From: a virus | Virus genome (UHGV): UHGV-0019907 | DNA length: 45,003 nt | Direction: 5' to 3' (one strand) | Shown: positions 5,427-38,520 of the stretch, in pieces | Numbering within the stretch: the first letter of the stretch is position 1 | Layout of the letters: every line of letters starts with the position of its first letter | The notes under the pieces: model-generated | The model's input: only the letters and a program-made list of their open reading frames with translations | What the model was told of the DNA's origin: nothing | Database searches by the model: none | Made by a program: the position numbers and the translations under genes

Positions 5427-5897
5427 ATGGATACTTTTAAACTTTGCCCGCTGCAAGATGGCTATAACTTCATGGCTGGCAATAACGTCCGTGAACAGGC
5501 TTTAGAGGGTGGCCAGCCGCGTCAGGTGATTAAGTTCATCGGCGCGGTGCATCGTGTCGGGGCGCAAGTCATGGCGAAAGACCCGCGCGAACGCCAATAC
5601 TTTTGGGCGTTTTGGCGACTCAATCAGACCAAGCAATTTCTTTGGAATCTAGCACTGGATAGCGGTGATATGGAGGACTGCATTTGTCAGTTTTCAGCCG
5701 AAGCTGTGCCACAGGAAACTTTAGTAGGTGCATTCGCTCGACGTATTTCATTTACGGTTTATGTAACACAGATTGTTCGTAATGCTGATTTTGACCGCGA
5801 CATTATCACTATTTTTGATAACACAGAAGATACCGTGATTCCAGATATTGAGAAAATTCCGAACGTATGGCTGCCTGATGCGGTGGGGGTGGAATAA
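5427..5897 (+). CDS. minor tail protein (distal tail / tip assembly)
   Basis: Position immediately after tape measure; 156 aa. Confidence 0.5.
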   Translation: MDTFKLCPLQDGYNFMAGNNVREQALEGGQPRQVIKFIGAVHRVGAQVMAKDPRERQYFWAFWRLNQTKQFLWNLALDSGDMEDCICQFSAEAVPQETLVGAFARRISFTVYVTQIVRNADFDRDIITIFDNTEDTVIPDIEKIPNVWLPDAVGVE

Positions 5898-25689: not shown

Positions 25690-26352
25690 TTAAGATACCA
25701 CCACTTGATAAACCTGCTTGGCCTTACTTGATGCTAGCTTGTAAATATCCTTGTAATTCATTTCTTTTTCAATGCCTTGTGTTAATGCGCTTGCAATAAC
25801 GCGCTCGACCATTGCCAAGTGTTCAAGCTGCACTGCGCTTAATGAATCTCTTTGGCCTGCGCTGATATTTAGAATTTCATTTGTTGCTTTGGTAATGATT
25901 GCATAATAGCGCTCACTGCTCTGGCTGCCATTGCTTTTTGCGTATTCAATAAATTCCTTGATTGCATCCGTTTCAACTCTGCGGATCATCTTGCCCTCAG
26001 CGCGGTAAAATCCATGCTTGCGAATTGATGGCAAAACCTCACCAGTAACCCATGCTCGGAACAAAACAGCTTTTTGCTTTCGGCTATTGAAAACCAACTC
26101 ATAAAAAATTTGCTCATTTATGATCGTGGCTTTTTGCTTTCCGCCTGATGTTTGGATAAGGGTGTCGGTAATGCCGACGTCCTTTGCGCCTGCTGTTTTT
26201 AGTTTCTTGCTTATTTCGTTTACAGCATCACGGGAGTTCTTGATTCCCAGAACGCGACAAACATCACCAGCTAAAAACCACGGTTCGCCATTCTTGATAG
26301 TTGCTTTTAATTCACCAAGTTCAGGATGAGAAAATAATTGTACTTGCGACAT
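25690..26352 (-). CDS. Bro-N domain antirepressor-like protein
   Basis: N-terminal FLAGDVCRVLGIKNSRDAV (Bro-N / KilA-N type) and a C-terminal helical domain. Confidence 0.7.
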   Translation of the reverse strand: MSQVQLFSHPELGELKATIKNGEPWFLAGDVCRVLGIKNSRDAVNEISKKLKTAGAKDVGITDTLIQTSGGKQKATIINEQIFYELVFNSRKQKAVLFRAWVTGEVLPSIRKHGFYRAEGKMIRRVETDAIKEFIEYAKSNGSQSSERYYAIITKATNEILNISAGQRDSLSAVQLEHLAMVERVIASALTQGIEKEMNYKDIYKLASSKAKQVYQVVVS

Positions 26353-26672
26353 TTTGAAACTCCATTAAGTAAAAGAATCCCTACTTTGATAATGGTCATT
26401 TCAGGATGGTTTTATTATATCAAATTGACGGTTAATTTGGGAGTGGTATTTGTATATTTTATCTAAATGAGAATGATTCTATAAAGTTAAAATCTTACCA
26501 GTTAGCCTATTCTTCTTATATATCATTAGGGTTTAATGGTATAAATATTATATAGAAATAACGCGTAATTCATATAAAAAAGTAATGTACTTTATTTAAA
26601 TTAATAGAAAAAAGTAATTAGAAGTTTTACTATAATTATAATAATATATTGACATAACTTAGGAGAAATCAC
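26353..26672. promoter_or_regulatory. AT-rich 320 bp divergent control region
   Basis: Very low GC, with repeated AAAAAGTAAT and TATAAT-like boxes. It separates the leftward Bro-N operon from the rightward late operon. Confidence 0.4.
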
Positions 26673-26876
26673 ATGAAAGTAAAGATCAAAACATATAACG
26701 AAGAGTTAACGTATCTGACACTTGGAAAAGAGTATGAGGTAATCGAAGAATCTGAAAACTTCTTTGTTATCCGAGCTGACAAATATGGAAATATCTTGTG
26801 CAAGTTTAACGACTGCTATCACCTAAACGGCGGATCATGGGAGATCGTCACAGAATCGCGTACAAGCCAAAATTAA
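26673..26876 (+). CDS. hypothetical small protein
   Basis: 67 aa with a TTAGGAGA RBS, preceded by the conserved moron 5' cassette. Confidence 0.45.
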   Translation: MKVKIKTYNEELTYLTLGKEYEVIEESENFFVIRADKYGNILCKFNDCYHLNGGSWEIVTESRTSQN

Positions 26877-26946
26877 CCCAACAAGCTACATCGGTATAGG
26901 TAGACACATAAAAACGCCTATATCGAGCTTACAGTGAGAAATAGAC

Positions 26947-28008
26947 ATGCTTTTAAACTCAATTAAAGACCAATCACTTACTTCTGAAGTTGAAGAATGG
27001 TTAAAAAACAACAAAGCTACTGTTATTCCGCGTGGAGTTTCAACCGCAACCGGATATACACCGCCGCAACCATCGGAACGGACGCCACAGGAATCTAAAA
27101 AACGCATCCGTGAAGTCAATCAGATCGTGAAAGCGGAAAAAGAAGCGAAAAAAATGATGGCAAAGGCGAGTTATCAGGCGCAAAAAATGCTCACAGACCA
27201 GCAGACCAAGCGCGAAGCCATTGAGATCATGAAAGTATTTAGGGAAAAAGCCAATCATGGCGATGTGGGTAGACTTGCGAAAATTCTAGGCATCGCAAGA
27301 AAAACCCTGTCAAACTGGGCGTGTGGTGCTGGACTGCCCGACCAGAAAAAACTTGAAAAACTTAAAATTGAAGTTTCCAGATTTGAGTTTAAAGAGCCAG
27401 TTCCGCAAAAAGAAAAGCGAAAAATTCGAGATCGGGCAAAGCGTTCAAAAAATCCAGAGGTTGTACGCAGAAGAGATTTAGCAAAGCGCAAAAAACAGGC
27501 CATTGACGCAGGGCTTAAAGAATTTCAGGCCACATGCGCTAAACATGGCTTGACGACATACATGATTGCATCGGGTGCAGCTCGTTGCCAGAAATGCAGA
27601 ACTGACCAGCAGCAGGAGCGTGCAAGCAAAATCAGCCCAAACCTGAAAAAGATGCAGCAGTGCGTTAAAGATGGCGTTGATTCATTTATCGGTGAGTGTA
27701 AAAAACATGGTGAAGCAAAATTTTATGTAAACAAATCAGGAAAAAACCACGTTTACCGCTGTGATTTATGCCGAAAAGAAGCCCACAAAAAGCAGAATGA
27801 AAGGAAGGTTTTAACGGATGAACAGCGTTATCGCAGATTAAACCGTGAAATTGCTTTAACGATGTACGCAGCAGACCCGACAAATCGAAAATTTATAGGG
27901 ATGTGCATCAAACACGGTGAAACTGAATTCTATATCAAAATGGAAAAAAGACTGCCTTCTGGCGTGGCTTATGCTTGTAAAGCCTGTAAGAACAATGTTA
28001 AGATATAA
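26947..28008 (+). CDS. HTH DNA-binding protein with three tandem zinc-ribbon-like repeats
   Basis: HTH VGRLAKILGIARKTLSNWA. Three repeats C-x-KHG-x-T-x-F/Y...C-x2-C: CAKHGLTTY..CQKC, CKKHGEAKFY..CDLC and CIKHGETEFY..CKAC. Confidence 0.55.
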   Translation: MLLNSIKDQSLTSEVEEWLKNNKATVIPRGVSTATGYTPPQPSERTPQESKKRIREVNQIVKAEKEAKKMMAKASYQAQKMLTDQQTKREAIEIMKVFREKANHGDVGRLAKILGIARKTLSNWACGAGLPDQKKLEKLKIEVSRFEFKEPVPQKEKRKIRDRAKRSKNPEVVRRRDLAKRKKQAIDAGLKEFQATCAKHGLTTYMIASGAARCQKCRTDQQQERASKISPNLKKMQQCVKDGVDSFIGECKKHGEAKFYVNKSGKNHVYRCDLCRKEAHKKQNERKVLTDEQRYRRLNREIALTMYAADPTNRKFIGMCIKHGETEFYIKMEKRLPSGVAYACKACKNNVKI

Positions 28009-28010
28009 AC

Positions 28011-28202
28011 ATGCTTAACCAACTGCTAGACCTCTGCATCCAAACCGATGCAATTTTTGAAGTGCAGTCCAAGACTGTGAAAGTGATTAAATACAAGGGC
28101 GAATGGATACCAAACAAACGCCCTGAATTATACGCAAAATGCCATGTCGATGATGTGGCGGCTTTAGGAGAGATTTATGCGAAATTGCAGAGAGTATCTT
28201 GA
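28011..28202 (+). CDS. hypothetical protein
   Basis: 63 aa ORF 3 nt after the previous stop. Confidence 0.35.
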   Translation: MLNQLLDLCIQTDAIFEVQSKTVKVIKYKGEWIPNKRPELYAKCHVDDVAALGEIYAKLQRVS

Positions 28203-28833
28203 AAAACAAGAAGATGGAACATATGCGCTTGTGTTGCGCGGTGATCTATGCAAAGAGAGTGATATTTTAATTCCAGAAGGCGCGGAAATCGCTATGCTTT
28301 ACAAAACAGGCGAGGTTGAGTTCTTTAAGGAAAATTATGATTATTTTTGGTTTGCGAAATTCCAAGAATGGAAATCAACAAAAAACGCTCCAAATTTCTA
28401 TAAAAACGCATCTGTTGTATGGCAACGCGAACAAGACGATCCATTCATAACGCCTGAAACCACGCTGAATGATCAATATGCGGAGATTGAACAGGTGCGT
28501 CAGGTAGAAATTCACGGAACTGTGAAAGCAAAGCCTGATTTTAATTTTGGGGCAGCACAGGCAAGCGGTGGGGTTGATGCAACACTGGCAGAACGTCAAT
28601 CCACTTACGGGAATTTTGAGGATGTGGCATTTGTCACTGAAAACATCATGTCTATTCTTGCGCAAGTTCGCGTTAATGGCTTGAATGATTTACCACATAC
28701 ACACCGCATGGCGTTATACATGATTGCTTCCAAAATGGCGCGTATTGTGAACGGTGATCCTGAATACTTTGATAACTGGCACGACATTGGCGGCTATGCA
28801 AAATTAATCGAAAAGCTGATTAAAGGAGAATAA
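28177..28833 (+). CDS. conserved hypothetical phage protein
   Basis: 218 aa with an AGGAGA RBS; C-terminal region ERQSTYGNFED...DNWHDIGGYAKL. Confidence 0.45.
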   Translation: MRNCREYLEKQEDGTYALVLRGDLCKESDILIPEGAEIAMLYKTGEVEFFKENYDYFWFAKFQEWKSTKNAPNFYKNASVVWQREQDDPFITPETTLNDQYAEIEQVRQVEIHGTVKAKPDFNFGAAQASGGVDATLAERQSTYGNFEDVAFVTENIMSILAQVRVNGLNDLPHTHRMALYMIASKMARIVNGDPEYFDNWHDIGGYAKLIEKLIKGE

Positions 28834-28835
28834 CA

Positions 28836-29192
28836 ATGGATAAGCTAACAATAGCAACCGAAGTGCTGCTTAAATTAATTGAAACAGATAAGACAGGTTT
28901 TGATGCAGAAGGGATTGCTGGCTATGCGTGGGAAATTGCCGACGCAATGCAAGCCGAAGCGGATAAGCGTAAACCTAGTGGATTGCCAGAAGCATTGTGC
29001 GAAGTAGATTGGAGTGTTGCTCCATCATGGGCTAAATACTGGGCAGTCAGAGATGGCGGCTATGAAGCTTTATGGTGTGTTAACAAGCCAACCGTAACAG
29101 ACGATTGCCTTTTATCTCATGGCGGATGTAGCCCAGCCCCATCATTCGGCTTTACAGGCACTCATATTGTGGAGCGTCCAAATGGCTTCTAA
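28836..29192 (+). CDS. hypothetical protein
   Basis: 118 aa with a GGAGAATAACA-ATG context. Confidence 0.4.
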   Translation: MDKLTIATEVLLKLIETDKTGFDAEGIAGYAWEIADAMQAEADKRKPSGLPEALCEVDWSVAPSWAKYWAVRDGGYEALWCVNKPTVTDDCLLSHGGCSPAPSFGFTGTHIVERPNGF

Positions 29193-29739
29193 ACGTAAAT
29201 ACAACCCAAACAAAGTCAGCCAGTTAATCCAGGCCAAGTCTATGCAAGTTCACCGCCTATGGATGCGGTACGACAACGACTTGATTGACCGAATCACGGA
29301 TGAATGGCTCAAGGACCACCCCAACGAGGATGTGGCCACCAACCTGCTATATCCACACATTGACGGCGACCTGATTATTGCGATTAAACACCGTTTAATA
29401 TCATTGGAACAGAAATGGCATATCAAACTAACTTTAGAGTTAGACGATGACACAGAAGCAGAATTGATTTTTGACTTACCAAAAGCACACTTGAAAGACA
29501 TTAAATTGCCGACTGCTGAGTTTAAGATTGACCGCGGCAATGGGATCAAAACGCGCTGGAAAGGTTTAGACAAAGAAGTCGAGGATGCACTTAAACCTTT
29601 GGAAGCGGAAGGCGTAGGATGTGTCAGAACATGGGCTTATATTGCGGTTGAAACGCCTTTTAAATCTAAGGCGGATTATTCATATTTCGTTCAGGAAAAG
29701 GCACTTCGATTGATGTTAGGGGAGATGGTGGCGGCATAG
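29182..29739 (+). CDS. hypothetical protein
   Basis: Start at MASKRKYN overlapping the upstream stop (ATGGCTTCTAA); 185 aa. Confidence 0.45.
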   Translation: MASKRKYNPNKVSQLIQAKSMQVHRLWMRYDNDLIDRITDEWLKDHPNEDVATNLLYPHIDGDLIIAIKHRLISLEQKWHIKLTLELDDDTEAELIFDLPKAHLKDIKLPTAEFKIDRGNGIKTRWKGLDKEVEDALKPLEAEGVGCVRTWAYIAVETPFKSKADYSYFVQEKALRLMLGEMVAA

Positions 29740-29757
29740 TGCGCCGCGTTAACATAA

Positions 29758-29782
29758 GACCCTGCACCAGTCAGGGTTTTGT
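29758..29782 (+). terminator. rho-independent terminator
   Basis: accctg-caccagt-cagggtttt. Confidence 0.5.
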
Positions 29783-29828
29783 GCTATATTGAGCATAGTA
29801 TTATTTAGCTAGGGGCTAAAGAATAGCG

Positions 29829-30230
29829 ATGGCAGAGCCAAAACTAACGCTGAAACAACGGCGATTTATTGAAGAATATTTGATTGATTTTAACGGCTGT
29901 CAAGCTGCGATTCGTGCTGGGTATAGTGAGAGTTCAGCAAAGGAGATTGCAGCAGAAAACTTAACGAAACCTAACATAAAATCAGAAATTGACAGATTGA
30001 CCGCGCAAATGACTGAAAAAGCTATAGTTACCAAAGAAATGGTGCTTCAAGGGTTGCTTGATGAAGCTAGAATGTACGATGAAGGTGCAAGCCATTCAGC
30101 GCGTGTTAGTGCGTGGGCGCATTTAGGCAAGCATTTGGGCATCTTCATGGATAAAGTGGAGCTTAGCGGCAAAGTCGAAGTCACTTCACTAGGTTCACTC
30201 ATTGACGAGTTATCAGAAGATGAGTCTTGA
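29829..30230 (+). CDS. terminase small subunit
   Basis: LTLKQRRFIEEYLIDFNGCQAAIRAGYSESSAKEIAAENLTKPNI (Terminase_2 / P27-family pattern). Confidence 0.75.
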   Translation: MAEPKLTLKQRRFIEEYLIDFNGCQAAIRAGYSESSAKEIAAENLTKPNIKSEIDRLTAQMTEKAIVTKEMVLQGLLDEARMYDEGASHSARVSAWAHLGKHLGIFMDKVELSGKVEVTSLGSLIDELSEDES

Positions 30231-31710
30231 GCCTGAACACATTGCGAAGTTGAAAGATCGGCTTTGGAGGTTGAATCACCTCTATTTTATCGAGGACAAG
30301 GAAAACAAATCTGTCCGCTTTAAGATGACTGCCGAGCAGCTTGAATATTACGAGAACATGCACTCGCGCAATGTCATCCTGAAAGCGCGTCAGCTTGGTT
30401 TTACAACCGAGTGCTGCATCATTCAGCTTGACCTTGCATTGTTTCACTCGAAGCATTGTGCATTGATTGCGCATACCTTGCCTGATGCTGAGCGGTTATT
30501 TCGCAATAAAACCAAATACGCTTATGATCGCCTGCCCGAGCAAATCAAGGCAGCGAATCCAATCGTCAAGGAAACAACGTCCGAGCTTGTTTTTCAAAAA
30601 GGCGGCTCTATTACCGTTTCCACTTCATTTCGTGGCGGTACGCTTTATAGCTTGCATGTTTCCGAGTTCGGTAAAATCTGCGCCAAGCATCCGCATAAAG
30701 CGCGCGAAATCGTCACAGGTGCATTTGAAGCTGTGCCAAAGAACGGCAAGATCACACTTGAATCAACAGCAGAGGGTCGTTCGGGCTACTTCTTTGATTA
30801 CTGTCAGGAATCAGAAAATAACGCCTTAAAAGGCAAGCAGTTAGGCATTTTGGACTGGAAGTTCTTTTTCTTCTCATGGTGGAAAAATAAGGATTATCAG
30901 ATTGAAGTGACCGAGCCATTATCCGCAAGACTGATAGAGTACTTTGATAACCTGGAAGCTAAATACGGTATCAAGACCACGCCTGAACAACGTGCCTGGT
31001 ATGCGTCAAAAGAGAAAACGCTAGGCGAGGATATGAAGCGTGAGTATCCGTCTATTCCAGCCGAAGCATTTGCTCAATCGGTTGAGGGTGCGTATTACGC
31101 TAAACAGTTTAAAGACCTGTACGCGAAAGGTCGTATAACCGAGTTGCCAGACAATAGCCATCTGCCAGTTCATACTGCTTGGGATATTGGTGTAGGCGAT
31201 TCTACAGCGATTTGGTTTTTCAGATTGGTTGGTCAGGAAATCCATGTAATAGATTACTACGAAAACTCAGGTGAAGGCTTGCGTCATTATATGACCATTC
31301 TCAAACGCAAAGGTTACAAGTACGGTTATCACTATGGACCACACGACTTGAATAACAAAGAGTTTGGCTCTGATGCTAAATCACGCTATGACATTGCCCG
31401 CGAGGGATATGAGATTGATGGGCAAGTCTACCGTTTGACATTTGAAGTGCTACCACGCGCGGGAATTGATGACGGTATCGAACAGGTGCGCGAGATATTG
31501 CCACGCTGCGTATTTGATGAGCATAAGTGTGATGAAGGTATTTCACATTTAGAAAACTATCGCAAGGAATGGGATGATAAACGCGGATGCTGGAAAGATA
31601 GACCGCTGCATGACCACACTTCGCATGGCGCGGATGCTTTCCGTTATTTAGCCAATAGTCAGACGAAACGACATAAAGCAAAACGTGTAAATATTTCGAC
31701 AGTGTATTGA
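30220..31710 (+). CDS. terminase large subunit
   Basis: Walker-A-like KARQLGFTT and a C-terminal nuclease-domain motif HDHTSHGADAFRY. The ATG at 30220 overlaps the TerS stop; the track shows TTG at 30202. Confidence 0.85.
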   Translation: MSLEPEHIAKLKDRLWRLNHLYFIEDKENKSVRFKMTAEQLEYYENMHSRNVILKARQLGFTTECCIIQLDLALFHSKHCALIAHTLPDAERLFRNKTKYAYDRLPEQIKAANPIVKETTSELVFQKGGSITVSTSFRGGTLYSLHVSEFGKICAKHPHKAREIVTGAFEAVPKNGKITLESTAEGRSGYFFDYCQESENNALKGKQLGILDWKFFFFSWWKNKDYQIEVTEPLSARLIEYFDNLEAKYGIKTTPEQRAWYASKEKTLGEDMKREYPSIPAEAFAQSVEGAYYAKQFKDLYAKGRITELPDNSHLPVHTAWDIGVGDSTAIWFFRLVGQEIHVIDYYENSGEGLRHYMTILKRKGYKYGYHYGPHDLNNKEFGSDAKSRYDIAREGYEIDGQVYRLTFEVLPRAGIDDGIEQVREILPRCVFDEHKCDEGISHLENYRKEWDDKRGCWKDRPLHDHTSHGADAFRYLANSQTKRHKAKRVNISTVY

Positions 31711-31974
31711 CATTGGTTTTGGTGCAGTGGTAATATTCTATTATTGATTGAATCCATGCGCGACATGGTAGTAAGTATAGCGCCTTATTTGGTTTGGTCG
31801 CTAGATTCAAAGCTGACTATACGCTTAAGACGAATCATGCAACTATTCGCACGTTGCCGATCAATAAAATAAGCAAGTAGATTGCAGATAGCTTGGGGCA
31901 TGAAATCCCGATTGATGTTTGCTTGCTTTCTAGGTTATTCAGCCTAGTGACCGCCCGAAAGTGGGCAATTTTAG

Positions 31975-32074
31975 AGAGTGAATGAGGTGTACTGGTTGCA
32001 TTGCATTCAGCATAGAAATATGTATCGGGTAAGGCGCTGCCGATGGACTAGGTTCGATTCCTGGCGTTCACTCT
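31975..32074 (+). ncRNA. tRNA-like minihelix element (10 bp acceptor-like stem + canonical T-arm); not a canonical tRNA
   Basis: agagtgaatg (31975-84) pairs with cgttcactct (32065-74) with one G.U. The T-arm ctagg-TTCGATT-cctgg at 32048-64 is directly adjacent. The interior does not fold as D or anticodon arms by eye. Confidence 0.25.
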
Positions 32075-32233
32075 ACTAAAGTTCAAACCCGTGATACATC
32101 GGGAGCTTGCGAAAGTCTTTAGTCCTCAGACTTTAAATAAGTAACAAGCCAAAGTATGAATGTATCAAGTGTTTCCCTAACATGGGGGAGTTACCGCAGT
32201 AGCCGCGCTGTACACGAAAGGCGGTAATAACTA

Positions 32234-32262
32234 AGCCTTGCTATATGCAGGGCTTTTTTATA
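32234..32262 (+). terminator. rho-independent terminator ending the non-coding structured segment
   Basis: agccttgc-tata-tgcagggct followed by TTTTTT. Confidence 0.6.
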
Positions 32263-32290
32263 CCTTAAAGAAAATAACAGGGAGTTGGCT

Positions 32291-32398
32291 ATGCTTGCAT
32301 TTATCAAAAGACTGCTGTGCTTTCATCACTACGATTATCAATCAGACATATTTCGGCAAACTGAATGCCGGAAATGCGGAAAATACAAGGCCGATTAA
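32291..32398 (+). CDS. putative 35 aa Cys/His mini-protein
   Basis: AGGGAG RBS 6 nt upstream; MLAFIKRLLCFHHYDYQSDIFRQTECRKCGKYKAD. Ends in the terminator at 32389-32409. Confidence 0.3.
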   Translation: MLAFIKRLLCFHHYDYQSDIFRQTECRKCGKYKAD

Positions 32399-32409
32399 TG
32401 GCCTTTTTT
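32389..32409 (+). terminator. rho-independent terminator
   Basis: ggcc-gattaat-ggcc followed by TTTTTT. Confidence 0.5.
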
Positions 32410-32414
32410 GATGC

Positions 32415-32443
32415 TTGACAATTGGTATTTATAATAACATAAT
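32415..32443 (+). promoter_or_regulatory. sigma70-like promoter
   Basis: TTGACA-N17-CATAAT upstream of the 32467 gene. Confidence 0.5.
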
Positions 32444-32466
32444 GACATAAAGTTAAGGAGATAAGC

Positions 32467-32715
32467 ATGAACACAGCAATCAAATACGCAAACGAAAACG
32501 GTATCGAAGCACTTAAAGACGCGCTGCCTGTATCACTCAAGCCGTCAACAAATGAATCAATCGTTCTGGACGGCATTCGCATTAACCTAGCCGATGCTTT
32601 TGAAGTGGTCGCAGCGAGTGACTTTGTAGAAAAGTTTAACGCATTGCCTTGCCTGTACGATGATTTAGCAGAGAAGGCGCGTTATTTCGAGATTATGTCG
32701 GAGGTGGAGGCGTGA
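32467..32715 (+). CDS. hypothetical protein
   Basis: 82 aa with a TAAGGAGA RBS. Confidence 0.45.
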   Translation: MNTAIKYANENGIEALKDALPVSLKPSTNESIVLDGIRINLADAFEVVAASDFVEKFNALPCLYDDLAEKARYFEIMSEVEA

Positions 32716-32790
32716 GCAGTCGTGAATTTGTGGCAGGATTGGTCTTGCTGCCTTTCGCTTTATTTATTGTTTATACAGGAGCGTTGATTA

Positions 32791-32985
32791 ATGGATTTTA
32801 AGGAATGGAGTAAATACAATTTAGGCTATACAGGCGAAGATGCATACAAAGCCGGCCAACAAAGTAAACAGGCGGAGATTGATGCGCTCAAAGCGAAAAT
32901 AGATGGCGTGTTAGAACTTATGCGCCATCCAATGAGAGGAACAACATCGGACTTGCTGTCAGATATAGAGGATATTTTGGGATGA
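32791..32985 (+). CDS. hypothetical protein
   Basis: 64 aa with AGGAG 10 nt upstream. Confidence 0.4.
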   Translation: MDFKEWSKYNLGYTGEDAYKAGQQSKQAEIDALKAKIDGVLELMRHPMRGTTSDLLSDIEDILG

Positions 32986-33194
32986 ACATTGAAACAATGC
33001 AAAAAATTGTAGACGGTGCGCCTAAGTGGGCGGATACATACCTTTTTCATGGTATATATTCTGATTCAAAAATTGTTGATTGTGGCGCTATAGGCATTCC
33101 ATTGGACAACCTACGCACCGAACTAGCCAAACGCGAACCAATGGATTTGCGAGATGTAGATATTCCACACGGCACAATTGTTTTGGAGAAGTAG
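32982..33194 (+). CDS. hypothetical protein
   Basis: 70 aa; ATGA overlap with the upstream gene. Confidence 0.4.
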   Translation: MNIETMQKIVDGAPKWADTYLFHGIYSDSKIVDCGAIGIPLDNLRTELAKREPMDLRDVDIPHGTIVLEK

Positions 33195-33195
33195 A

Positions 33196-33378
33196 ATGAA
33201 TCACGGTTGGTATGAAATTATGGATAGACTTTTTGTTTTTCAGCAAGGGATTGAAGAACACGTTAAAAACCATCAGGCGAGCGATGACGAGTTAAAGCGA
33301 TTGATTGATGAAGCACAAGAGAAGTTAGCTGATGCTTATCAATATGCAGGCGGAAAGGCTTTAGAGGGTGAGGAATGA
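33196..33378 (+). CDS. hypothetical protein
   Basis: Start at MNHGWYE with a GGAGAAGTAGA-ATG context; 60 aa. Confidence 0.4.
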   Translation: MNHGWYEIMDRLFVFQQGIEEHVKNHQASDDELKRLIDEAQEKLADAYQYAGGKALEGEE

Positions 33379-33515
33379 ATATAAACATAGCCATGTTGAC
33401 CATAACAGCGATATTGTTTTTCTTTGGATTTATTGATTTCGAGAAAGCTGTACTCTCTATCATGTCAATTGCCTGCTTTTTTCTATATGACATACACAAG
33501 GAATTAAGAAAATGA
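33375..33515 (+). CDS. 46 aa membrane peptide (2 TM)
   Basis: ATGA overlaps on both sides; MNINIAMLTITAILFFFGFIDFEKAVLSIMSIACFFLYDIHKELRK. Confidence 0.35.
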   Translation: MNINIAMLTITAILFFFGFIDFEKAVLSIMSIACFFLYDIHKELRK

Positions 33516-33724
33516 CCCCACAACAAATTAAAGCAAATGCACCGGAAGGGGCGCAATACTATTGCGAATATCCAATAACAATCTACGACAAGAGAGGATC
33601 GTATTTAAAGTCTAGATTTAAATTATTGTTTAGATGGGAGTGTGGCAAATGGGTTTTTATATGTTTCCCATTTCGACAAGGAGACTGTGAGAAGAACGGC
33701 TATATTAAACTCAAGCCCCTATAA
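33512..33724 (+). CDS. small protein of the 'APEGA...KPL' paralog family (copy B)
   Basis: QIKANAPEGAQYY...IKLKPL, with its stop in the terminator loop. Confidence 0.5.
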   Translation: MTPQQIKANAPEGAQYYCEYPITIYDKRGSYLKSRFKLLFRWECGKWVFICFPFRQGDCEKNGYIKLKPL

Positions 33725-33738
33725 CAGGGCTTTTTTAT
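33712..33738 (+). terminator. rho-independent terminator
   Basis: agcccc-tataac-agggct followed by TTTTTT. Confidence 0.6.
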
Positions 33739-33740
33739 TG

Positions 33741-33770
33741 CTATAATAAGAAAAACTTATATAGGGTTAG
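33741..33770 (+). promoter_or_regulatory. conserved palindromic element TATAAG-AAAAA-CTTATA + GGGTTAG (copy 2)
   Basis: Matches 11655-11686; directly precedes the portal start codon. Confidence 0.4.
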
Positions 33771-33774
33771 AAAA

Positions 33775-35172
33775 ATGTCAGTAGATTTTCAGCATTTAGA
33801 TTATTTAGAAAATGCCGACAGATGGCAGATGATGCAGGACGTATGCAGTGGCTCACGTGCGGTCAAGAAAGCAAAAACACTGTATCTGCCTATGATTAAC
33901 TTTTGCGACAATCCAGACCAAAACTGGGCGCGTTACCAAGCATATTTAAAACGTGCCGTTTTCTATCCGATCACAAAGAATACTTTGCAGACGCATATCG
34001 GCCTGGCTTTTGCAGAAGATCCGACTTTTGACCCTGACGGCATGGATTTTCTCAAGGACAACGCGGACGGCTTAGGCACTTCGATTTATCAGCTCAATCA
34101 GAAAGCTTTAAGCCTGTTGCTCAAATTTGGTCGTGGCGGATTCTTGGTGGACTATCCGACCACTCAAGGCGGGGTAACACCAGCCGACATTCAAACGCGC
34201 GGCATACGGCCAATCATGGCGTTATACGACGCATTTAACATCATTAACTGGCGTGTTAAGAAGATTGGCAATGAATTTCGCACCTCTTTGGTCGTTTTGC
34301 GCGAATTTGCGACGCAAACAGACCCACTAAATGAGTTTCAGGATAAGGTTGTCACAAACTACCGCGTACTTCGCCTAGATGAGAATAACGAATATTTGAT
34401 TCAAGTCTATTCAGACAGCACAGGCGAAATGCTGGCGGGTGAATTGATTTACCCGACTATCAATGGCAAACGTTTAAATGAAATCCTGTTTTTCCCAATC
34501 GGGGCGCAGGTTAATGACTTTTCAATTGACGAAATCCCGCTTGAACCAGTGGCCGAAATCAACCTGGCACATTACCGCAACAGTGCCGAGTACGAGCAAT
34601 CGGTATTCTTCACTAACCAAGTGCAGCCTGTTTTTAGTGAGCTAGACCATGATGATGCTGACCGTTTAGAGCAAGACGGCGTGATGTTGGGCAGTGCAAC
34701 ACCGCTCGTTCTACGTGGAACCGGGAAGTTCGCCTACGCAACCGCACCAATTGACACGTTGGCAAAAGAAGCGATGGATGACAAAAAACAGTACATGCAG
34801 GACTTGGGCGCGAAATTGCTTGATTCCAACGCAGTAAATAAGACCGCCACGCAGATTAACTCCGAAGATGCTACAAATCACTCTGTCTTGTCGCTGTGCG
34901 TGTCGAACCTGAATGAAGCTATGGAGTACTGCCTGAAATGGTGTGCAGCGTTTTACGGTTCAGGCAGCAATGCTCGCTTCACGATTAAGCAGGACTTTGC
35001 GCGTGGTCGCATTTCACTGGAGGATTTAAAATTCTACCAATCGGAAGTTGTCGCAGGTCGAATGAGCGCAAAAACGCTGCATGAGATTATGTCTACAGGT
35101 AAAATTCCAGAGCTGGATTTTGATGAGGAACGACTCAGAATCGAGGAATCTAAGACGCAAAGTTTTGTATAA
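33775..35172 (+). CDS. portal protein (putative)
   Basis: 465 aa; first large gene after terminase and upstream of the Mu-F-like, scaffold and capsid genes. Assigned by position and size only. Confidence 0.55.
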   Translation: MSVDFQHLDYLENADRWQMMQDVCSGSRAVKKAKTLYLPMINFCDNPDQNWARYQAYLKRAVFYPITKNTLQTHIGLAFAEDPTFDPDGMDFLKDNADGLGTSIYQLNQKALSLLLKFGRGGFLVDYPTTQGGVTPADIQTRGIRPIMALYDAFNIINWRVKKIGNEFRTSLVVLREFATQTDPLNEFQDKVVTNYRVLRLDENNEYLIQVYSDSTGEMLAGELIYPTINGKRLNEILFFPIGAQVNDFSIDEIPLEPVAEINLAHYRNSAEYEQSVFFTNQVQPVFSELDHDDADRLEQDGVMLGSATPLVLRGTGKFAYATAPIDTLAKEAMDDKKQYMQDLGAKLLDSNAVNKTATQINSEDATNHSVLSLCVSNLNEAMEYCLKWCAAFYGSGSNARFTIKQDFARGRISLEDLKFYQSEVVAGRMSAKTLHEIMSTGKIPELDFDEERLRIEESKTQSFV

Positions 35173-35188
35173 AATTACCCATGAAATT

Positions 35189-35211
35189 AGCCCCAGAAAT
35201 GGGGCTTTTTA
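35189..35211 (+). terminator. rho-independent terminator
   Basis: agcccc-agaaat-ggggct followed by TTTTT. Confidence 0.65.
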
Positions 35212-35427
35212 CTGCTCAAAATTTGATCATTTAGGACATAATCTTATAAAAGCTCTATGTGATATATAATGATAATATGTTCTTATAATTTACGTGTTTT
35301 TCTATAATTTCCTTATACCAGTTGTATAAGATGTTATAAGATAAATAGTAGATTCTGGTAAGTTTACCAACAATGGAATTATTCTCAATTACGTGCTATT
35401 ATCTCCAAAATTATAGGAGAAAATACT

Positions 35428-35691
35428 ATGTCTATCGCGCAATCAGAAGATAAAGAAATTCAGTATATCTATAGCTTGAGATTTGATTTAAAAAAGCGAA
35501 TGAAGAAAGCAATCAAAAGAACAGGATTGTCACGCGCTGAAATCAACATGAAAGTTTCAAAAGCTGCTGGTAAATTTACAGAGGGGAAGGATCATTTAAA
35601 TTATATGACCTCACTGAAATACTATCTTGAGAATGGCGACATTGATTCCGAGCAGCATGAAAGAATTGCAAAACTGATAGATAAACTGTGA
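35428..35691 (+). CDS. hypothetical protein with possible HTH
   Basis: 87 aa with an AGGAGA RBS; RTGLSRAEINMKVSKAAGKF segment. Downstream of an AT-rich region carrying repeated TTATAAG. Confidence 0.4.
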   Translation: MSIAQSEDKEIQYIYSLRFDLKKRMKKAIKRTGLSRAEINMKVSKAAGKFTEGKDHLNYMTSLKYYLENGDIDSEQHERIAKLIDKL

Positions 35692-35784
35692 TATAATTTA
35701 GACACGGCTAGGCTGATCCCCGAAAAGACGATTCGTTACCGTCCTGCCGTGCTACAGAGTAACGACCCTAACGAGGATTGAAGA

Positions 35785-36348
35785 ATGCGATTATTTGTAG
35801 ATATTGGCATCGATGATGTGCTTGGCTCAGTAAAGACAAAAGAACACAGACTTTGGGTTGATATGCTCACCAGAAGCTATGATGAAAAACTACACCAAAG
35901 ACAACCAACATACCTAGACTGCGAAACATCAAGTGATTTTTTGGTTTTCTCTAAATTTCGCGACTGGTGTCAAAATCAAATAGGATTCAATCAGCCAAAA
36001 TTCGAGCTTGATAAAGACCTGTTAGAGAAGGGCAATAAGGAATACCACCCCGATAAATGTGTTTTTATTCCTAGGGCTATAAATTCAGCACTAAAAACAA
36101 GAAAGAAGATGCGCGGCAATTTACCAATAGGTGTCACCTCAAACAAATGTGGCTCTTATATTGCCCAAATAAACGATAGCCTAGGGAAAAGGTATCTTGG
36201 CAGCTTCCCCACTCCAGAACAAGCCTTTCAAGCCTACAAGGTGGCCAAAGAAAACCACCTCAAACTACTTGCTGAAAAATACCGCGACCAAATCGACCCT
36301 AGAGCCTATGAAGCACTTTTAAATTACAAAGTTGAAATAACTGATTAA
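35785..36348 (+). CDS. HNH homing endonuclease with C-terminal AP2 DNA-binding domain
   Basis: ELDKDLLEKGNKEYHPDKCVFIPRAIN (HNH_3-like) and LPIGVTSNKCGSYIAQINDSLGKRYLGSFPTPEQAFQAYKVAKENH (AP2 pattern). Confidence 0.65.
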   Translation: MRLFVDIGIDDVLGSVKTKEHRLWVDMLTRSYDEKLHQRQPTYLDCETSSDFLVFSKFRDWCQNQIGFNQPKFELDKDLLEKGNKEYHPDKCVFIPRAINSALKTRKKMRGNLPIGVTSNKCGSYIAQINDSLGKRYLGSFPTPEQAFQAYKVAKENHLKLLAEKYRDQIDPRAYEALLNYKVEITD

Positions 36349-36409
36349 TAATATGTTGACATAGATCACAAGGATGTGTATCTTTTAATCACTACTTAGG
36401 AGAATGAAC

Positions 36410-36514
36410 ATGAAAGCACTTTTACTAATTATTTCCGTACTGATGATGATTTTTGTGAACGTCATTTTCGGTTTTCTAATGCTGGTGCTGGTTGCGCTGT
36501 TTGTGAAGGATTGA
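36410..36514 (+). CDS. 34 aa hydrophobic membrane peptide
   Basis: MKALLLIISVLMMIFVNVIFGFLMLVLVALFVKD, with AGGAGA 6 nt upstream and a TTGACA-N17-TATCTT promoter. Confidence 0.35.
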   Translation: MKALLLIISVLMMIFVNVIFGFLMLVLVALFVKD

Positions 36515-36518
36515 AGAT

Positions 36519-36704
36519 ATGATTACATGGGTAACAGTTTGGGTTTTAACAGTGCAGACTTGCTATGACTGTAATTCAAATACAGCATATCAACTAACAT
36601 ACGCAACAAAAGAGATATGCGAGAAGCAGTTGGCAAAACATAGCAAATCGTACAGCAAAAGCGCACGTTGCGACTTTCAACAAATTCCAGTGGTGAAGAA
36701 ATGA
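36519..36704 (+). CDS. hypothetical small protein with N-terminal hydrophobic segment
   Basis: 61 aa, MITWVTVWVLTV..., 4 Cys. Confidence 0.35.
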   Translation: MITWVTVWVLTVQTCYDCNSNTAYQLTYATKEICEKQLAKHSKSYSKSARCDFQQIPVVKK

Positions 36705-36790
36705 ACTACCAAGACAACCCAGTTTTAACCACTGTAATTTCAATGTTAATCGGCCTTGCAATCGCAGGCATTTGGATAGTAGGGCTTTGA
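36701..36790 (+). CDS. 29 aa membrane peptide
   Basis: ATGA overlap with the upstream gene; MNYQDNPVLTTVISMLIGLAIAGIWIVGL. Confidence 0.3.
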   Translation: MNYQDNPVLTTVISMLIGLAIAGIWIVGL

Positions 36791-36791
36791 T

Positions 36792-36926
36792 ATGATCATC
36801 CTAGCAGCAATAATAGCCCTGATTTGCGCTGTAATCGCGTTAGAGCTACGTTACAAGGTTAAGCGTACCAACTACATAGAACGGAAAGAAATCGATCAAA
36901 TACGAGCATTCAGGAGCAAATGGTAA
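36792..36926 (+). CDS. 44 aa membrane peptide
   Basis: MIILAAIIALICAVIALELRYKVKRTNYIERKEIDQIRAFRSKW; its stop overlaps the next start (TAATG). Confidence 0.3.
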   Translation: MIILAAIIALICAVIALELRYKVKRTNYIERKEIDQIRAFRSKW

Positions 36927-37405
36927 TGAACCAACTAAAAACCAAAATCGACGAAGTGAAAGAAAAACTCGCATTAACGCAGATGCAACTATCCGAGCGT
37001 ATCGGCAAGAATCCGTATTACTTGGACACCGTGAAGCATCGCGGGGTTACAACTGAACGCCAGAATGAACTTATGCTTGAATTAGACCTAGTGGCCAACG
37101 GCGGAACGGTGATGACTGAGCGTGAAATTATCGCAGAACTCACCGAAAAAGCGGACACACTACAAAGCAGACTGAACAGCGCACAAGTAGCAAACAAGGA
37201 GCTTTGCCAAAAATTAGAACTTGCAGAAAACCAACATCGCCAGCTTGAAGAAATGTATGATTCAAATTGGGATAAGCTGCAAGAAACAAATAAACTCGTT
37301 GCATCCCTGCAAGAATACAAACAGCAATATCGCAACTTGGCAGCAACTGTACTTGTTGTTGGTGTTATTATTATTTTAGGCTTTGCGCTTTGGGGTTTAA
37401 AATGA
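36926..37405 (+). CDS. XRE-like HTH protein with coiled coil and C-terminal TM anchor
   Basis: LALTQMQLSERIGKNPYYLDTVKHRG (HTH-like), a Q/E/L-rich coiled coil and C-terminal VLVVGVIIILGFALWGL. Alternative ATG at 36920. Confidence 0.45.
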   Translation: MNQLKTKIDEVKEKLALTQMQLSERIGKNPYYLDTVKHRGVTTERQNELMLELDLVANGGTVMTEREIIAELTEKADTLQSRLNSAQVANKELCQKLELAENQHRQLEEMYDSNWDKLQETNKLVASLQEYKQQYRNLAATVLVVGVIIILGFALWGLK

Positions 37406-38520
37406 CCACTGAACAAAACATGCTGGACGCATTAATCCAGCATCAGGTTTATAGTTACAGGGCATCAACTGCGGTGGTGAATGAGCTTAACGGCTTATTC
37501 ACTAAAGCGATGAATCAGACTGCTACAAAACTTCGGGAGCTGTTAGATGAGCTAACCGATTCTGAACGTGATGCCTTACTGTCTGGCCGATACACAACTG
37601 ACACGCTCAAGGAAATCAAATCCACGTTTGACGAGCTTTACACCGCCGTAGCAATCACTGTGCCGGAAACTTTCACGGTATCAGCTATTGCGCTTGCTAC
37701 CTATGAAGCTGCTTATATTTCTAAACTTTACGGTGAAGAAATTGAACTCAATGGCAGCAAGGTCGTTGCCAACATCAAGAAAAAGCCAGTTATGGGCGGC
37801 ATGTTGTTTGATGATGTATGGAAAAACCTAGCAGAATCGACACGCAATAAAGCCTTATACGCGGTACGTCAAGGAATCGAGCAAGGAAACACGACAGCGC
37901 AAATCGTGGCTGAACTTCGCGGAAAGCGTACGCGCATGGCAGATGGGTCTTATAAATACGTTGGCGGAATTGTTGATGAAGTACGCAGAAATGGCATTGA
38001 AGCGAATGTGCGTACTATCAGGGCGACAGTGGCCAATACCGCGATGCAGGAAACATTTAGCGTTTTGGGTTATAAATATGTTAAGTTTTTCAATGTGTTA
38101 GACGGAAGGACTTCCAAGAAGTGCGCTTTTTACTCCAATAAAGTCTATAGCATTGATGAGCCGCATCCGGCTCCACCTTTGCATCCAAATTGCCGTTCCT
38201 TACTTATTGGTGTTTCTGATAAGGAAGGAAAATTAGAAGGCAAGCGGCCTTTTGTAGCATCAGATAAACCAGTATCAAAGATACCCAAAGACCAGCGCAG
38301 CGATGTTATTGGTCAGGTAGATGCAAATGTGGGCTTTAAATCGTGGTTCAATAAGCAAGATGCAGAATTTCAACGTAACTGGCTGGGTAGTTCGCGCTAT
38401 GCCTTATTCAAGAAAGGTGGATATGATCTAGATCGTTTTGTTGATCCGCTTGGGAATGAATTGACGCTTGCTGAACTTAGGGAACTCGATAGTCGCACGT
38501 TTAAGGAGTTGGGATTATGA
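37402..38520 (+). CDS. head morphogenesis protein (Mu F / SPP1 gp7 family)
   Basis: FNVLDGRTSKKCAFYSNKVYSIDEPHPAPPLHPNCRS (Phage_Mu_F signature); ATGA overlap with the upstream gene. Confidence 0.8.
   Translation: MTTEQNMLDALIQHQVYSYRASTAVVNELNGLFTKAMNQTATKLRELLDELTDSERDALLSGRYTTDTLKEIKSTFDELYTAVAITVPETFTVSAIALATYEAAYISKLYGEEIELNGSKVVANIKKKPVMGGMLFDDVWKNLAESTRNKALYAVRQGIEQGNTTAQIVAELRGKRTRMADGSYKYVGGIVDEVRRNGIEANVRTIRATVANTAMQETFSVLGYKYVKFFNVLDGRTSKKCAFYSNKVYSIDEPHPAPPLHPNCRSLLIGVSDKEGKLEGKRPFVASDKPVSKIPKDQRSDVIGQVDANVGFKSWFNKQDAEFQRNWLGSSRYALFKKGGYDLDRFVDPLGNELTLAELRELDSRTFKELGL

Follow-up and report, generated by a model that had tools for sequence, protein, structure and literature searches.

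What occupies the gap that follows the large terminase gene in the virus genome UHGV-0019907, a stretch of 45,003 nucleotides referred to here as the window? The gap opens directly behind TerL (30202–31710; about 70% amino acid identity to the TerL proteins of Klebsiella, Providencia and Acinetobacter siphoviruses), and the next credible open reading frame (ORF) starts at 32291. A preliminary description of this DNA had seen no convincing ORF here, and our analysis agrees: the longest ORF in 31711–32290 encodes 42 amino acids, and none of the five short ORFs of the gap matched a PHROGs family. The plus strand from about 31743 to 32261 is a stand-alone gene for a non-coding RNA of about 520 nt, running from a promoter to a terminator, and the RNA strings together modules that fold independently of one another (M1, M3, M4, M5 and D3); these are shuffled, and in some cases optional, within a family of related elements. 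For the full proposal, in which the gene encodes a structured RNA that belongs to a conserved family and has a scaffold or tRNA-cargo role, we estimate a probability of roughly 0.6. Its first part, the structured gene and its family membership, is highly probable on its own; the scaffold or cargo role, proposed by analogy, is doubtful.

The sigma-70 promoter (Table 1) overlaps the stop codon of TerL and predicts a transcription start at about 31743, within the 5′ strand of P1, the closing helix of M1. Among 28 distinct relatives, 21 have a −10-like hexamer ending 1–3 nt upstream of the start of the M1 model, and the −35 and spacer sequences diverge; given this conserved distance, the RNA probably begins inside P1. 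Within 31723–31755, the segments previously read as D-loop-like (GCAGTGGTA) and T-loop-like (TTGATTGAATCC) are no tRNA pieces: the former is the promoter spacer with the extended −10, and the latter the 5′ strand of P1 with the conserved M1 junction. At the other end, the suspected intrinsic terminator was recovered by our scan as a hairpin at 32233–32255 with its T run, and the elements of two relatives, loci L017 and L050, end in the same terminator. Folding support, on which the preliminary description had made its proposal depend, was found for the stretch 31740–32265 (z −3.2, with none of 100 shuffles as good) and for the unit 31966–32084, with a minimum free energy (MFE) of −38.5 kcal/mol (z −4.0, with none of 200 shuffles folding as well). 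All the sequence features listed there were found, at most a few bases away from their stated positions; the strong hairpins are gccc-gaaagt-gggc at 31953–31966, aaagtct/agacttt at 32112–32134 and accgc/gcggt at 32192–32225.

Parts of the gap are homologous, by BLAST, to unannotated non-coding gaps of 700–800 bp in unrelated Acinetobacter phages. The carriers include the Obolenskviruses AP22 and IME-Ap7 with about 20 others, the phages of about 95 kb Herod, Ab15, BS46 and Phab24, and uncultured phages; pattern scans added about 60 loci (IMG/VR: 14, 37, 10, 9; metagenome: 5). The modular RNA family has been found in about 45 distinct contigs of phages or prophages, and the locus occurs in four different genomic contexts. 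The cultured hosts are all Acinetobacter. L017 is the window's closest relative, with a different, non-tRNA sequence in the variable slot described below; L005, L027, L029, L038, L046 and L060 were checked and discarded as false. A 33-nt core of M1 (31836–31868) is 100% identical in most of the BLAST-matched Acinetobacter phages, and the surrounding 12 kb (26000–38000) has no other nucleotide similarity to any Acinetobacter phage record. With megablast against 50,697 phage records, the same query returned only this core and short stretches of TerL (Klebsiella and Providencia phages, 82–84% identity), and the phage in the window has no close cultured relative. A degenerate M1 pattern, run over 185,579 species-representative genomes, gave 30 matches, apparently due to chance except for a phage-like contig from a metagenome-assembled genome (L031), and none in any Acinetobacter genome among these representatives. 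Since the genome scan yielded essentially chance matches, we consider the element phage-borne and not host-derived.

The case for a conserved RNA structure is made in M1 by an alignment of 23 distinct sequences (A2), in which pairing holds in 94.9% of cells and both partners have changed in 8 of 20 pairs; this level is attained by none of 500 shuffles, and slid controls pair at 22–49%. The covariation in related phages that had been called for is present, here with eight double changes and in M5 with pair swaps among 39 units. The helices of M1 contain 22 G.U against 4 A.C pairs, an excess from which we conclude that the plus strand is the acting strand. A covariance model built from M1 (R1) scores 85.4 bits on the window and recognizes 29 copies in the family loci, 6 of them outside the seed, with no match in 30 control loci and none in the prophage-type loci. 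Throughout the family, M1 is always the first element downstream of the promoter.

The hairpin M4 lies immediately 5′ of the M5 helix, and its stem exists in at least eight complementary versions among 20 distinct aligned copies (GCCC/GGGC, GCUAG/CUAGC, GCUUG/CAGGC, GCCU/AGGC, GCCUG/CAGGC, GCCAC/GUGGC, GCUG/CAGC and GCCAA/UUGGC), with the UGAC, the GAAAG-type loop and the trailing AA held constant. IME-Ap7, AP22, Herod and L006 also have M3, at 77–89% identity. Its long helix P4 occurs in three unrelated sequence versions (AAGCAAGUAGA/UUUGCUUGCUU, AUAGGUAAA/UUUACUUAU and UUUUAAUUAA/UUAAUUAAAA), and in P6 CUAGG/CCUAG is exchanged for GAUAG/CUAUC between relatives, both as read by eye in alignment A6. 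Because MAFFT misplaced single-base indels in M3 and D3, we assessed P4 and P6 in AP22, as well as H1 in the L088 clade, by hand. In L050 (OFDP01005048, minus strand), a close relative, the 5′ part is duplicated: the promoter and the start of M1 are followed by an M4-like hairpin and a second, complete M1.

M5 is a helix of 18 bp that encloses a variable slot. Each of its positions is paired in 97–100% of 39 distinct units, and its bulged A is kept in all 39. Five consecutive pairs are swapped jointly between two haplotypes, represented by 14 and 25 units with no mixing; two further pairs alternate between U.G and C-G, and one between A-U and G-C. U.G is found at two positions in 36/39 and 28/39 units. 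The preliminary description had proposed a helix of 10 bp between the 3′ flank of a T-arm and 31975–31984; the helix is real, and it extends further than was thought, over 31967–31984 and 32065–32083. The T-arm itself stands as described, CTAGG-TTCGATT-CCTGG at 32048–32064, with the 5-bp stem and UUCRANY loop of a true tRNA. Since four hairpins meet at one junction in the MFE fold, with the T-arm stacked on M5, the modelled slot of the window has the shape of a class II tRNA, a shape that lacks decoding ability and a free acceptor end: the anticodon-arm position holds a GAAA tetraloop hairpin in place of a 7-nt loop, and the helix runs on to 18 bp, followed by UACUAAAGUU in place of NCCA. Across relatives, the slots are heterogeneous (31–170 nt), and their contents extend from a hairpin of 31 nt to a genuine tRNA, with a T-arm in 9 of 38. 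The same inserts recur in differing phage backgrounds, for example in L006 with L057 and in L053 with L059.

Table 1. Predicted promoter, RNA modules and terminator, in window coordinates.
Feature	Position	Strand	Sequence or basis
Sigma-70 promoter	31707–31736	+	TTGACA, 18-nt spacer, extended −10 TGgTAATAT (31728–31736); consensus scan, 10/12 plus TG element
M1, 5′ domain	31741–31867	+	BLAST, covariation, covariance model
P1, closing helix of M1	31741–31750 with 31858–31867	+	Alignment A2
P2, hairpin of M1	31754–31768	+	CCAUG-CGCGA-CAUGG
Variable hairpin of M1	31775–31822	+	GUAUAG/CUAUAC
P3, hairpin of M1	31839–31857	+	GCAAC-UAUUCGCAC-GUUGC; loop almost invariant
M3, optional domain	31871–31947	+	Also present in MFE fold
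P4, long helix of M3	31871–31881 with 31918–31928	+	Alignment A6, read by hand
P5, hairpin of M3	31895–31909	+	GGGG-CAUGAAA-UCCC
P6, hairpin of M3	31930–31947	+	CUAGG-UUAUUCAG-CCUAG
M4, hairpin	31948–31968	+	UGAC-C-GCCC-GAAAGU-GGGC-AA; stem 31953–31956 with 31963–31966
M5 helix, 5′ strand	31967–31984	+	AAU UUUAGAGAGUGAA UG; pairs with 32065–32083; MFE fold and 39-unit comparison
Slot insert, tRNA-shaped non-decoding domain	31985–32064	+	MFE fold: four hairpins on one junction
Slot hairpin a	31991–32009	+	Contains UGGUUGCA, a motif recurring in other tRNA-bearing slots
Slot hairpin b	32011–32022	+	CAUA-GAAA-UAUG; GAAA tetraloop in anticodon-arm position
Slot hairpin c	32023–32045	+	Resembles a long variable arm
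Slot T-arm, canonical, stacked on M5	32048–32064	+	CUAGG-UUCGAUU-CCUGG
M5 helix, 3′ strand	32065–32083	+	CG UUCACUCU A CUAAAGUU; A32075 is the bulge
D3, 3′ domain	32084–32232	+	Alignment A3 (9 sequences, two clades), RNAalifold
H1 of D3	32088–32103	+	CCCG-UGAUACAU-CGGG
H2 of D3	32105–32109 with 32145–32149	+	RNAalifold, two compensatory pairs
H3 of D3	32112–32134	+	aaagtct/agacttt
Long-range or kissing pairing of D3	32093–32099 with 32160–32166	+	GAUACAU with AUGUAUC, 7 bp; RNAalifold (5 G-C, 3 G.U at its end)
H4 of D3	32174–32189	+	Read by eye
Last stem of D3	32202–32206 with 32221–32225	+	GCCGC with GCGGU; RNAalifold
Intrinsic terminator	32233–32261	+	Hairpin 32233–32255, AAGCCUUGC-UAUAU-GCAGGGCUU, then U run; scan: 9 pairs, 5 G-C, then TTTTAT

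The 3′ domain comes in two types within the family. The window has D3, in which by-eye comparison of relatives shows the exchange of CCCG/CGGG for CUCC/GGAG in H1 and of UCCC/GGGA for ACCU/AGGU in H4; the Obolenskviruses, Herod and BS46 have a different type, which also covaries.

How does this RNA relate to tRNAs and to known RNA classes? ARAGORN, which covers both tRNA and transfer-messenger RNA (tmRNA), found no gene in the window, and Rfam 15 gave no match at gathering score in the whole 45 kb. The best tRNA-type hit is a sub-threshold match to tRNA-Sec (RF01852) at 31976–32073, with 20.9 bits (E 0.25) against a cut-off of 47; at E ≤ 10 over 31500–32500 there was otherwise only noise (STnc370, Phe_leader and others, far below their cut-offs). 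Both checks had been proposed beforehand, and they rule out a tRNA (RF00005) or tRNA-Sec gene as well as a tmRNA, which neither program reported. The family is nevertheless tied to tRNAs, because real tRNAs with an encoded CCA are embedded in or appended to the element in Herod, L017, L014, L085 and L095. The slot of Herod is an annotated tRNA-Lys(UUU), that of IME-Ap7 is a tRNA-like sequence of 45 bits, L017 has a real tRNA-Arg(UCU)-CCA inserted ahead of the shared terminator, and L095 has a tRNA-Phe after M4. In many prophage contigs, a lone M5 unit follows a terminator or a tRNA-Arg gene.

Smaller tRNA-like pieces were also seen in these loci. In the M1 region of Herod (L003, around 1330–1380), one piece resembles the D-arm and anticodon arm of a class II tRNA or tRNA-Tyr (GCCCGAGUGGUCGAAGGGG...GGACUGUAAAU). 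On the 3′ side of the element in L095 (L095/L096), an acceptor/T-arm minihelix ends in CCA (GCGCCUC...CUAGGUUCGAUUCCUAG-UAGGCGCUCCA), its T-arm equal to that of the window at 16 of 17 positions (CCUGG in the window, CCUAG in L095). On the minus strand of L091, about 100 nt 3′ of a D3 pattern match (5494–5519), lies CGGU-CUGAUGAG-CUAGUGGAAUUCUAG-CGAAAC-AUUUUAAAUGUC-ACCG, in which a minimal hammerhead core can be read by eye, complete and with GUC as the cleavage site (CGGU-CUGAUGAG-CUAG..CUAG-CGAAAC-AUU..AAUGUC-ACCG); Rfam gave no hammerhead match to it at E ≤ 1. A hammerhead core was looked for in the window and is absent from it.

Among known systems, the closest parallels are GOLLD and ROOL, large phage RNAs near tRNA islands that form nanocages, contain variable linkers and have no assigned function (PMC12286853, PMC5737381). 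In GOLLD (RF02032), a conserved part is accompanied by less conserved ones and by a variable linker, enclosed by a helix, in which tRNAs are sometimes found (PMC12286853). Like it, the window's family consists of multi-domain RNAs of phages and prophages, located near tRNAs and provided with a variable slot that can hold them. Herod (MW316732.1) also carries an unannotated GOLLD 3′ domain (26253–26621, corresponding to L049 1854–2222; 225 bits against a cut-off of 150) between tRNA-Asn and tRNA-Asp, about 750 nt downstream of our element in one tRNA island. With this locus as a positive control, the GOLLD model found nothing in the window at gathering score and nothing at E ≤ 10 in 31500–32500. 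Homology to the GOLLD 5′ domain was rejected, the 5′ region of the Herod GOLLD containing none of the family modules searched for. The window's RNA differs from GOLLD in being shorter (about 520 vs about 800 nt) and in being made of shuffled, optional modules.

ROOL is an ornate RNA of about 580 nt that contains a variable linker; it occurs in phages and prophages, frequently close to tRNAs, and neither a function nor a protein partner has been assigned to it (PMC5737381, PMC12286853). The ROOL model (RF03087) matched neither the window (E ≤ 10, 31500–32500) nor six related loci (E ≤ 1). Whereas ROOL is one intertwined fold spread over three phyla (PMC5737381), the window's family is a string of separable modules with cultured hosts only in Acinetobacter. 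As to the homo-oligomeric nanocages of GOLLD and ROOL, the sequence of the RNA described here offers conserved complementary loops such as GAUACAU/AUGUAUC. As far as can be judged by analogy, the family may work like GOLLD and ROOL, yet it is a member of neither. We class it as a new family of an already known kind of RNA, that of the large phage RNAs associated with tRNA islands; it is undescribed and absent from Rfam 15. No description of the element was found in the literature searched (by sequence, for Pseudomonadales-1, for ornate or large Acinetobacter phage RNAs, and in the small RNA atlas of Acinetobacter baumannii, PMC6182133).

Two further comparisons concern the slot and its helix. 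Like tRNAs, tRNA-Sec and viral tRNA-like structures, the window's domain has four arms on one junction and a T-arm (UUCGAUU, 5-bp stem) on an acceptor-like helix. Unlike them, it falls below every tRNA threshold, lacks a 7-nt anticodon loop, a discriminator and CCA, extends its acceptor-like helix by ten more pairs, and is internal to a longer RNA. In bacterial Y RNA (YrlA), a long stem with a conserved bulge closes a tRNA-like module, an arrangement that recurs in the roughly 110 nt of 31967–32083; the differences are that Rfam is negative in the window, that the stem is internal to a 520-nt RNA, and that most family slots are not tRNA-like. We know of no Ro/Rsr gene in the context of this family.

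Pseudomonadales-1 RNA (RF03046), a candidate small RNA of Acinetobacter prophages, is a separate known motif that shares the neighbourhood of the family and is absent from the window (Rfam, at gathering score and at E ≤ 10 over 31500–32500). In L058, a copy of 115 bits (3896–4063) lies about 60 nt upstream of a tRNA-Arg(UCU), with a lone M5 about 10 nt further on; in several other prophage-type contigs, a similar sequence precedes M5, by eye, with or without a tRNA. Its 3′ part (GUUGCCGAGCUGAUCAAUA) resembles the M1 core (GUUGCCGAUCAAUA).

We propose the following model for the function of this RNA. The locus would act as an RNA, rather than as a DNA site or a messenger RNA. The conserved modules may form a nuclease-resistant scaffold, possibly self-associating through the conserved complementary loops, and this scaffold would display or shelter tRNA or tRNA-mimic cargo in the M5 slot. 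By analogy with GOLLD and ROOL, the target of the RNA may well be the tRNA or translation machinery of the host, or else defences directed at tRNAs. Because the promoter is of the host type (sigma-70, with an extended −10), expression may take place early in infection or constitutively, independent of phage factors. More tentatively, and at somewhat less than even odds, the family could represent a third class of large ornate phage RNA beside GOLLD and ROOL, a modular scaffold whose bulged helix is a docking slot for tRNAs, mimics and small hairpins, and which may form higher-order particles or be a decoy or shield against tRNA-directed defences.

Several observations weigh against this model. 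With 29 of 38 slots not resembling tRNAs, the RNA cannot serve throughout the family to display a tRNA mimic. M5 stands alone in many prophage contigs, directly after a terminator or tRNA and just before an ORF, where it could be a cis element or processing site and not part of a scaffold. The covariation comes largely from few clades (two M5 haplotypes, two D3 clades), and because several of the comparisons rest on two or three clades, they hold few independent substitution events; P3 and the loops of M1 are nearly invariant and for that reason uninformative on pairing. The searches turned up no resemblance to GOLLD or ROOL, either in sequence or by model, and the functional argument proceeds by analogy with two RNAs that have themselves been assigned no function. 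That the gene is expressed, where its RNA begins and ends, and how it is processed are all deduced from the DNA.

How would other readings of the locus account for these data? It might be a polycistronic precursor or leader that RNase III, RNase P or RNase E processes at its conserved helices, chiefly at M5 and its bulged A, with the released small stable RNAs, slot inserts and tRNAs as the functional products; M1 would then be a 5′ leader that, for example, shields a long untranslated transcript from Rho or decay. The position of M1, always first after the promoter, fits such a precursor, as do the CCA-encoding tRNAs embedded in or appended to L017, L014, L085, L095 and Herod, the M5 units that occur alone in prophages, and the hammerhead core read by eye after D3 in L091. 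The window, however, has no real tRNA to release, the hammerhead was not confirmed by Rfam, and D3 and M3 are conserved and structured with no obvious processing role. We regard this reading as unlikely, if far from negligible, and it overlaps our model instead of excluding it. A missed or frameshifted protein-coding gene, which the preliminary description had named as the finding that would overturn its view, has the least to recommend it and can practically be set aside: several ORFs of 30–42 amino acids do overlap the region, but they have no PHROGs family and are not conserved in relatives, the homologous blocks are split by indels of arbitrary length (length differences in M1 are not multiples of 3), and the substitutions keep base pairs, not codons.

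The remaining alternatives take up the tRNA-like sequence itself. A decayed tRNA gene cluster, a functionless remnant of a phage tRNA island, would explain the T-arm of the window, the fragments in the M1 region of Herod and the L095 minihelix, together with slot contents that vary widely and often look degenerate. The idea of cluster remnants, already raised in the preliminary description, holds in so far as real tRNAs do lie in or beside the element; it fails for the best-conserved parts (the M1 core, M4, M5 and D3), which are not tRNA-derived, reach as much as 100% identity between phages with no other DNA in common, and keep their helices by compensatory changes between a promoter and a terminator that have been retained. 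Decay is thus a very improbable account. Slightly less probable still is an element acting at the level of DNA, whether an attP or recombination core, a boundary of mosaic exchange, a pac or ori site, or protein-bound inverted repeats. The M5 strands are indeed inverted repeats around variable DNA and carry sequence like the 3′ half of a tRNA, and the identical inserts of L006/L057 and L053/L059 fit cassette exchange by recombination at conserved flanks. Against a DNA site stand the tolerance of G.U only on the plus strand (22 vs 4 in M1; U.G in 36/39 and 28/39 units in M5), the asymmetric bulged A, the promoter–terminator bracket and the four different genomic contexts. The attP-like tRNA 3′ core suggested earlier is not supported, the T-arm and 3′ strand being paired with a conserved 5′ strand inside the RNA, in a helix that is internal in about 39 distinct units. 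The M1 pattern has no match in the Acinetobacter genomes among the species representatives, and a Pfam search of 19 window ORFs, which identified a terminase, a portal-like protein, a primase, a helicase, a methylase, Bro and a tailspike, found no integrase among them. Our data support the earlier candidate of a tRNA-like structured non-coding RNA, more specifically as a promoter-to-terminator gene of a conserved, covarying, multi-domain family.

What is the relevance of such a family? GOLLD and ROOL have recently been shown to be RNA-only nanocages, and large structured RNAs of unassigned function are rare in bacteria and phages. The family described here has the ecology of GOLLD and ROOL but is smaller and modular, and it resides in easily cultured, therapy-relevant phages of Acinetobacter baumannii with tractable hosts. 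Since cultured carriers exist (AP22, IME-Ap7, Herod and BS46), the question of why phages keep big RNAs beside tRNAs would become directly testable. The family also accounts for the seemingly empty gaps of 700–800 bp in dozens of deposited Acinetobacter phage genomes, and provides a case of an RNA module that moves between phages otherwise sharing no DNA, its core of 33 nt being 100% identical.

Just past the terminator, at 32291–32398 on the plus strand, lies a Cys/His-rich ORF of 35 amino acids (MLAFIKRLLCFHHYDYQSDIFRQTECRKCGKYKAD) with its own terminator (32387–32405) and no Pfam or PHROGs family. Homologues with 45–91% identity adjoin the element in four contexts: downstream of it in L017 and L050, upstream of M1 in L031 and L052, and, in at least nine prophage-type contigs, upstream of tRNA-Arg and M5. 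The product may be a partner protein or a mere hitchhiker. A second strong promoter (32408–32443; TTGACA, 17 nt, CATAAT, 11/12 matches) precedes a run of small ORFs with no Pfam family (32467–33724), ahead of a portal-like gene at 33775–35172 (DUF4055). Because this promoter follows the terminator of the small ORF and stands before the small-ORF run, the region from TerL to the portal resembles an inserted block of accessory units, each transcribed on its own.

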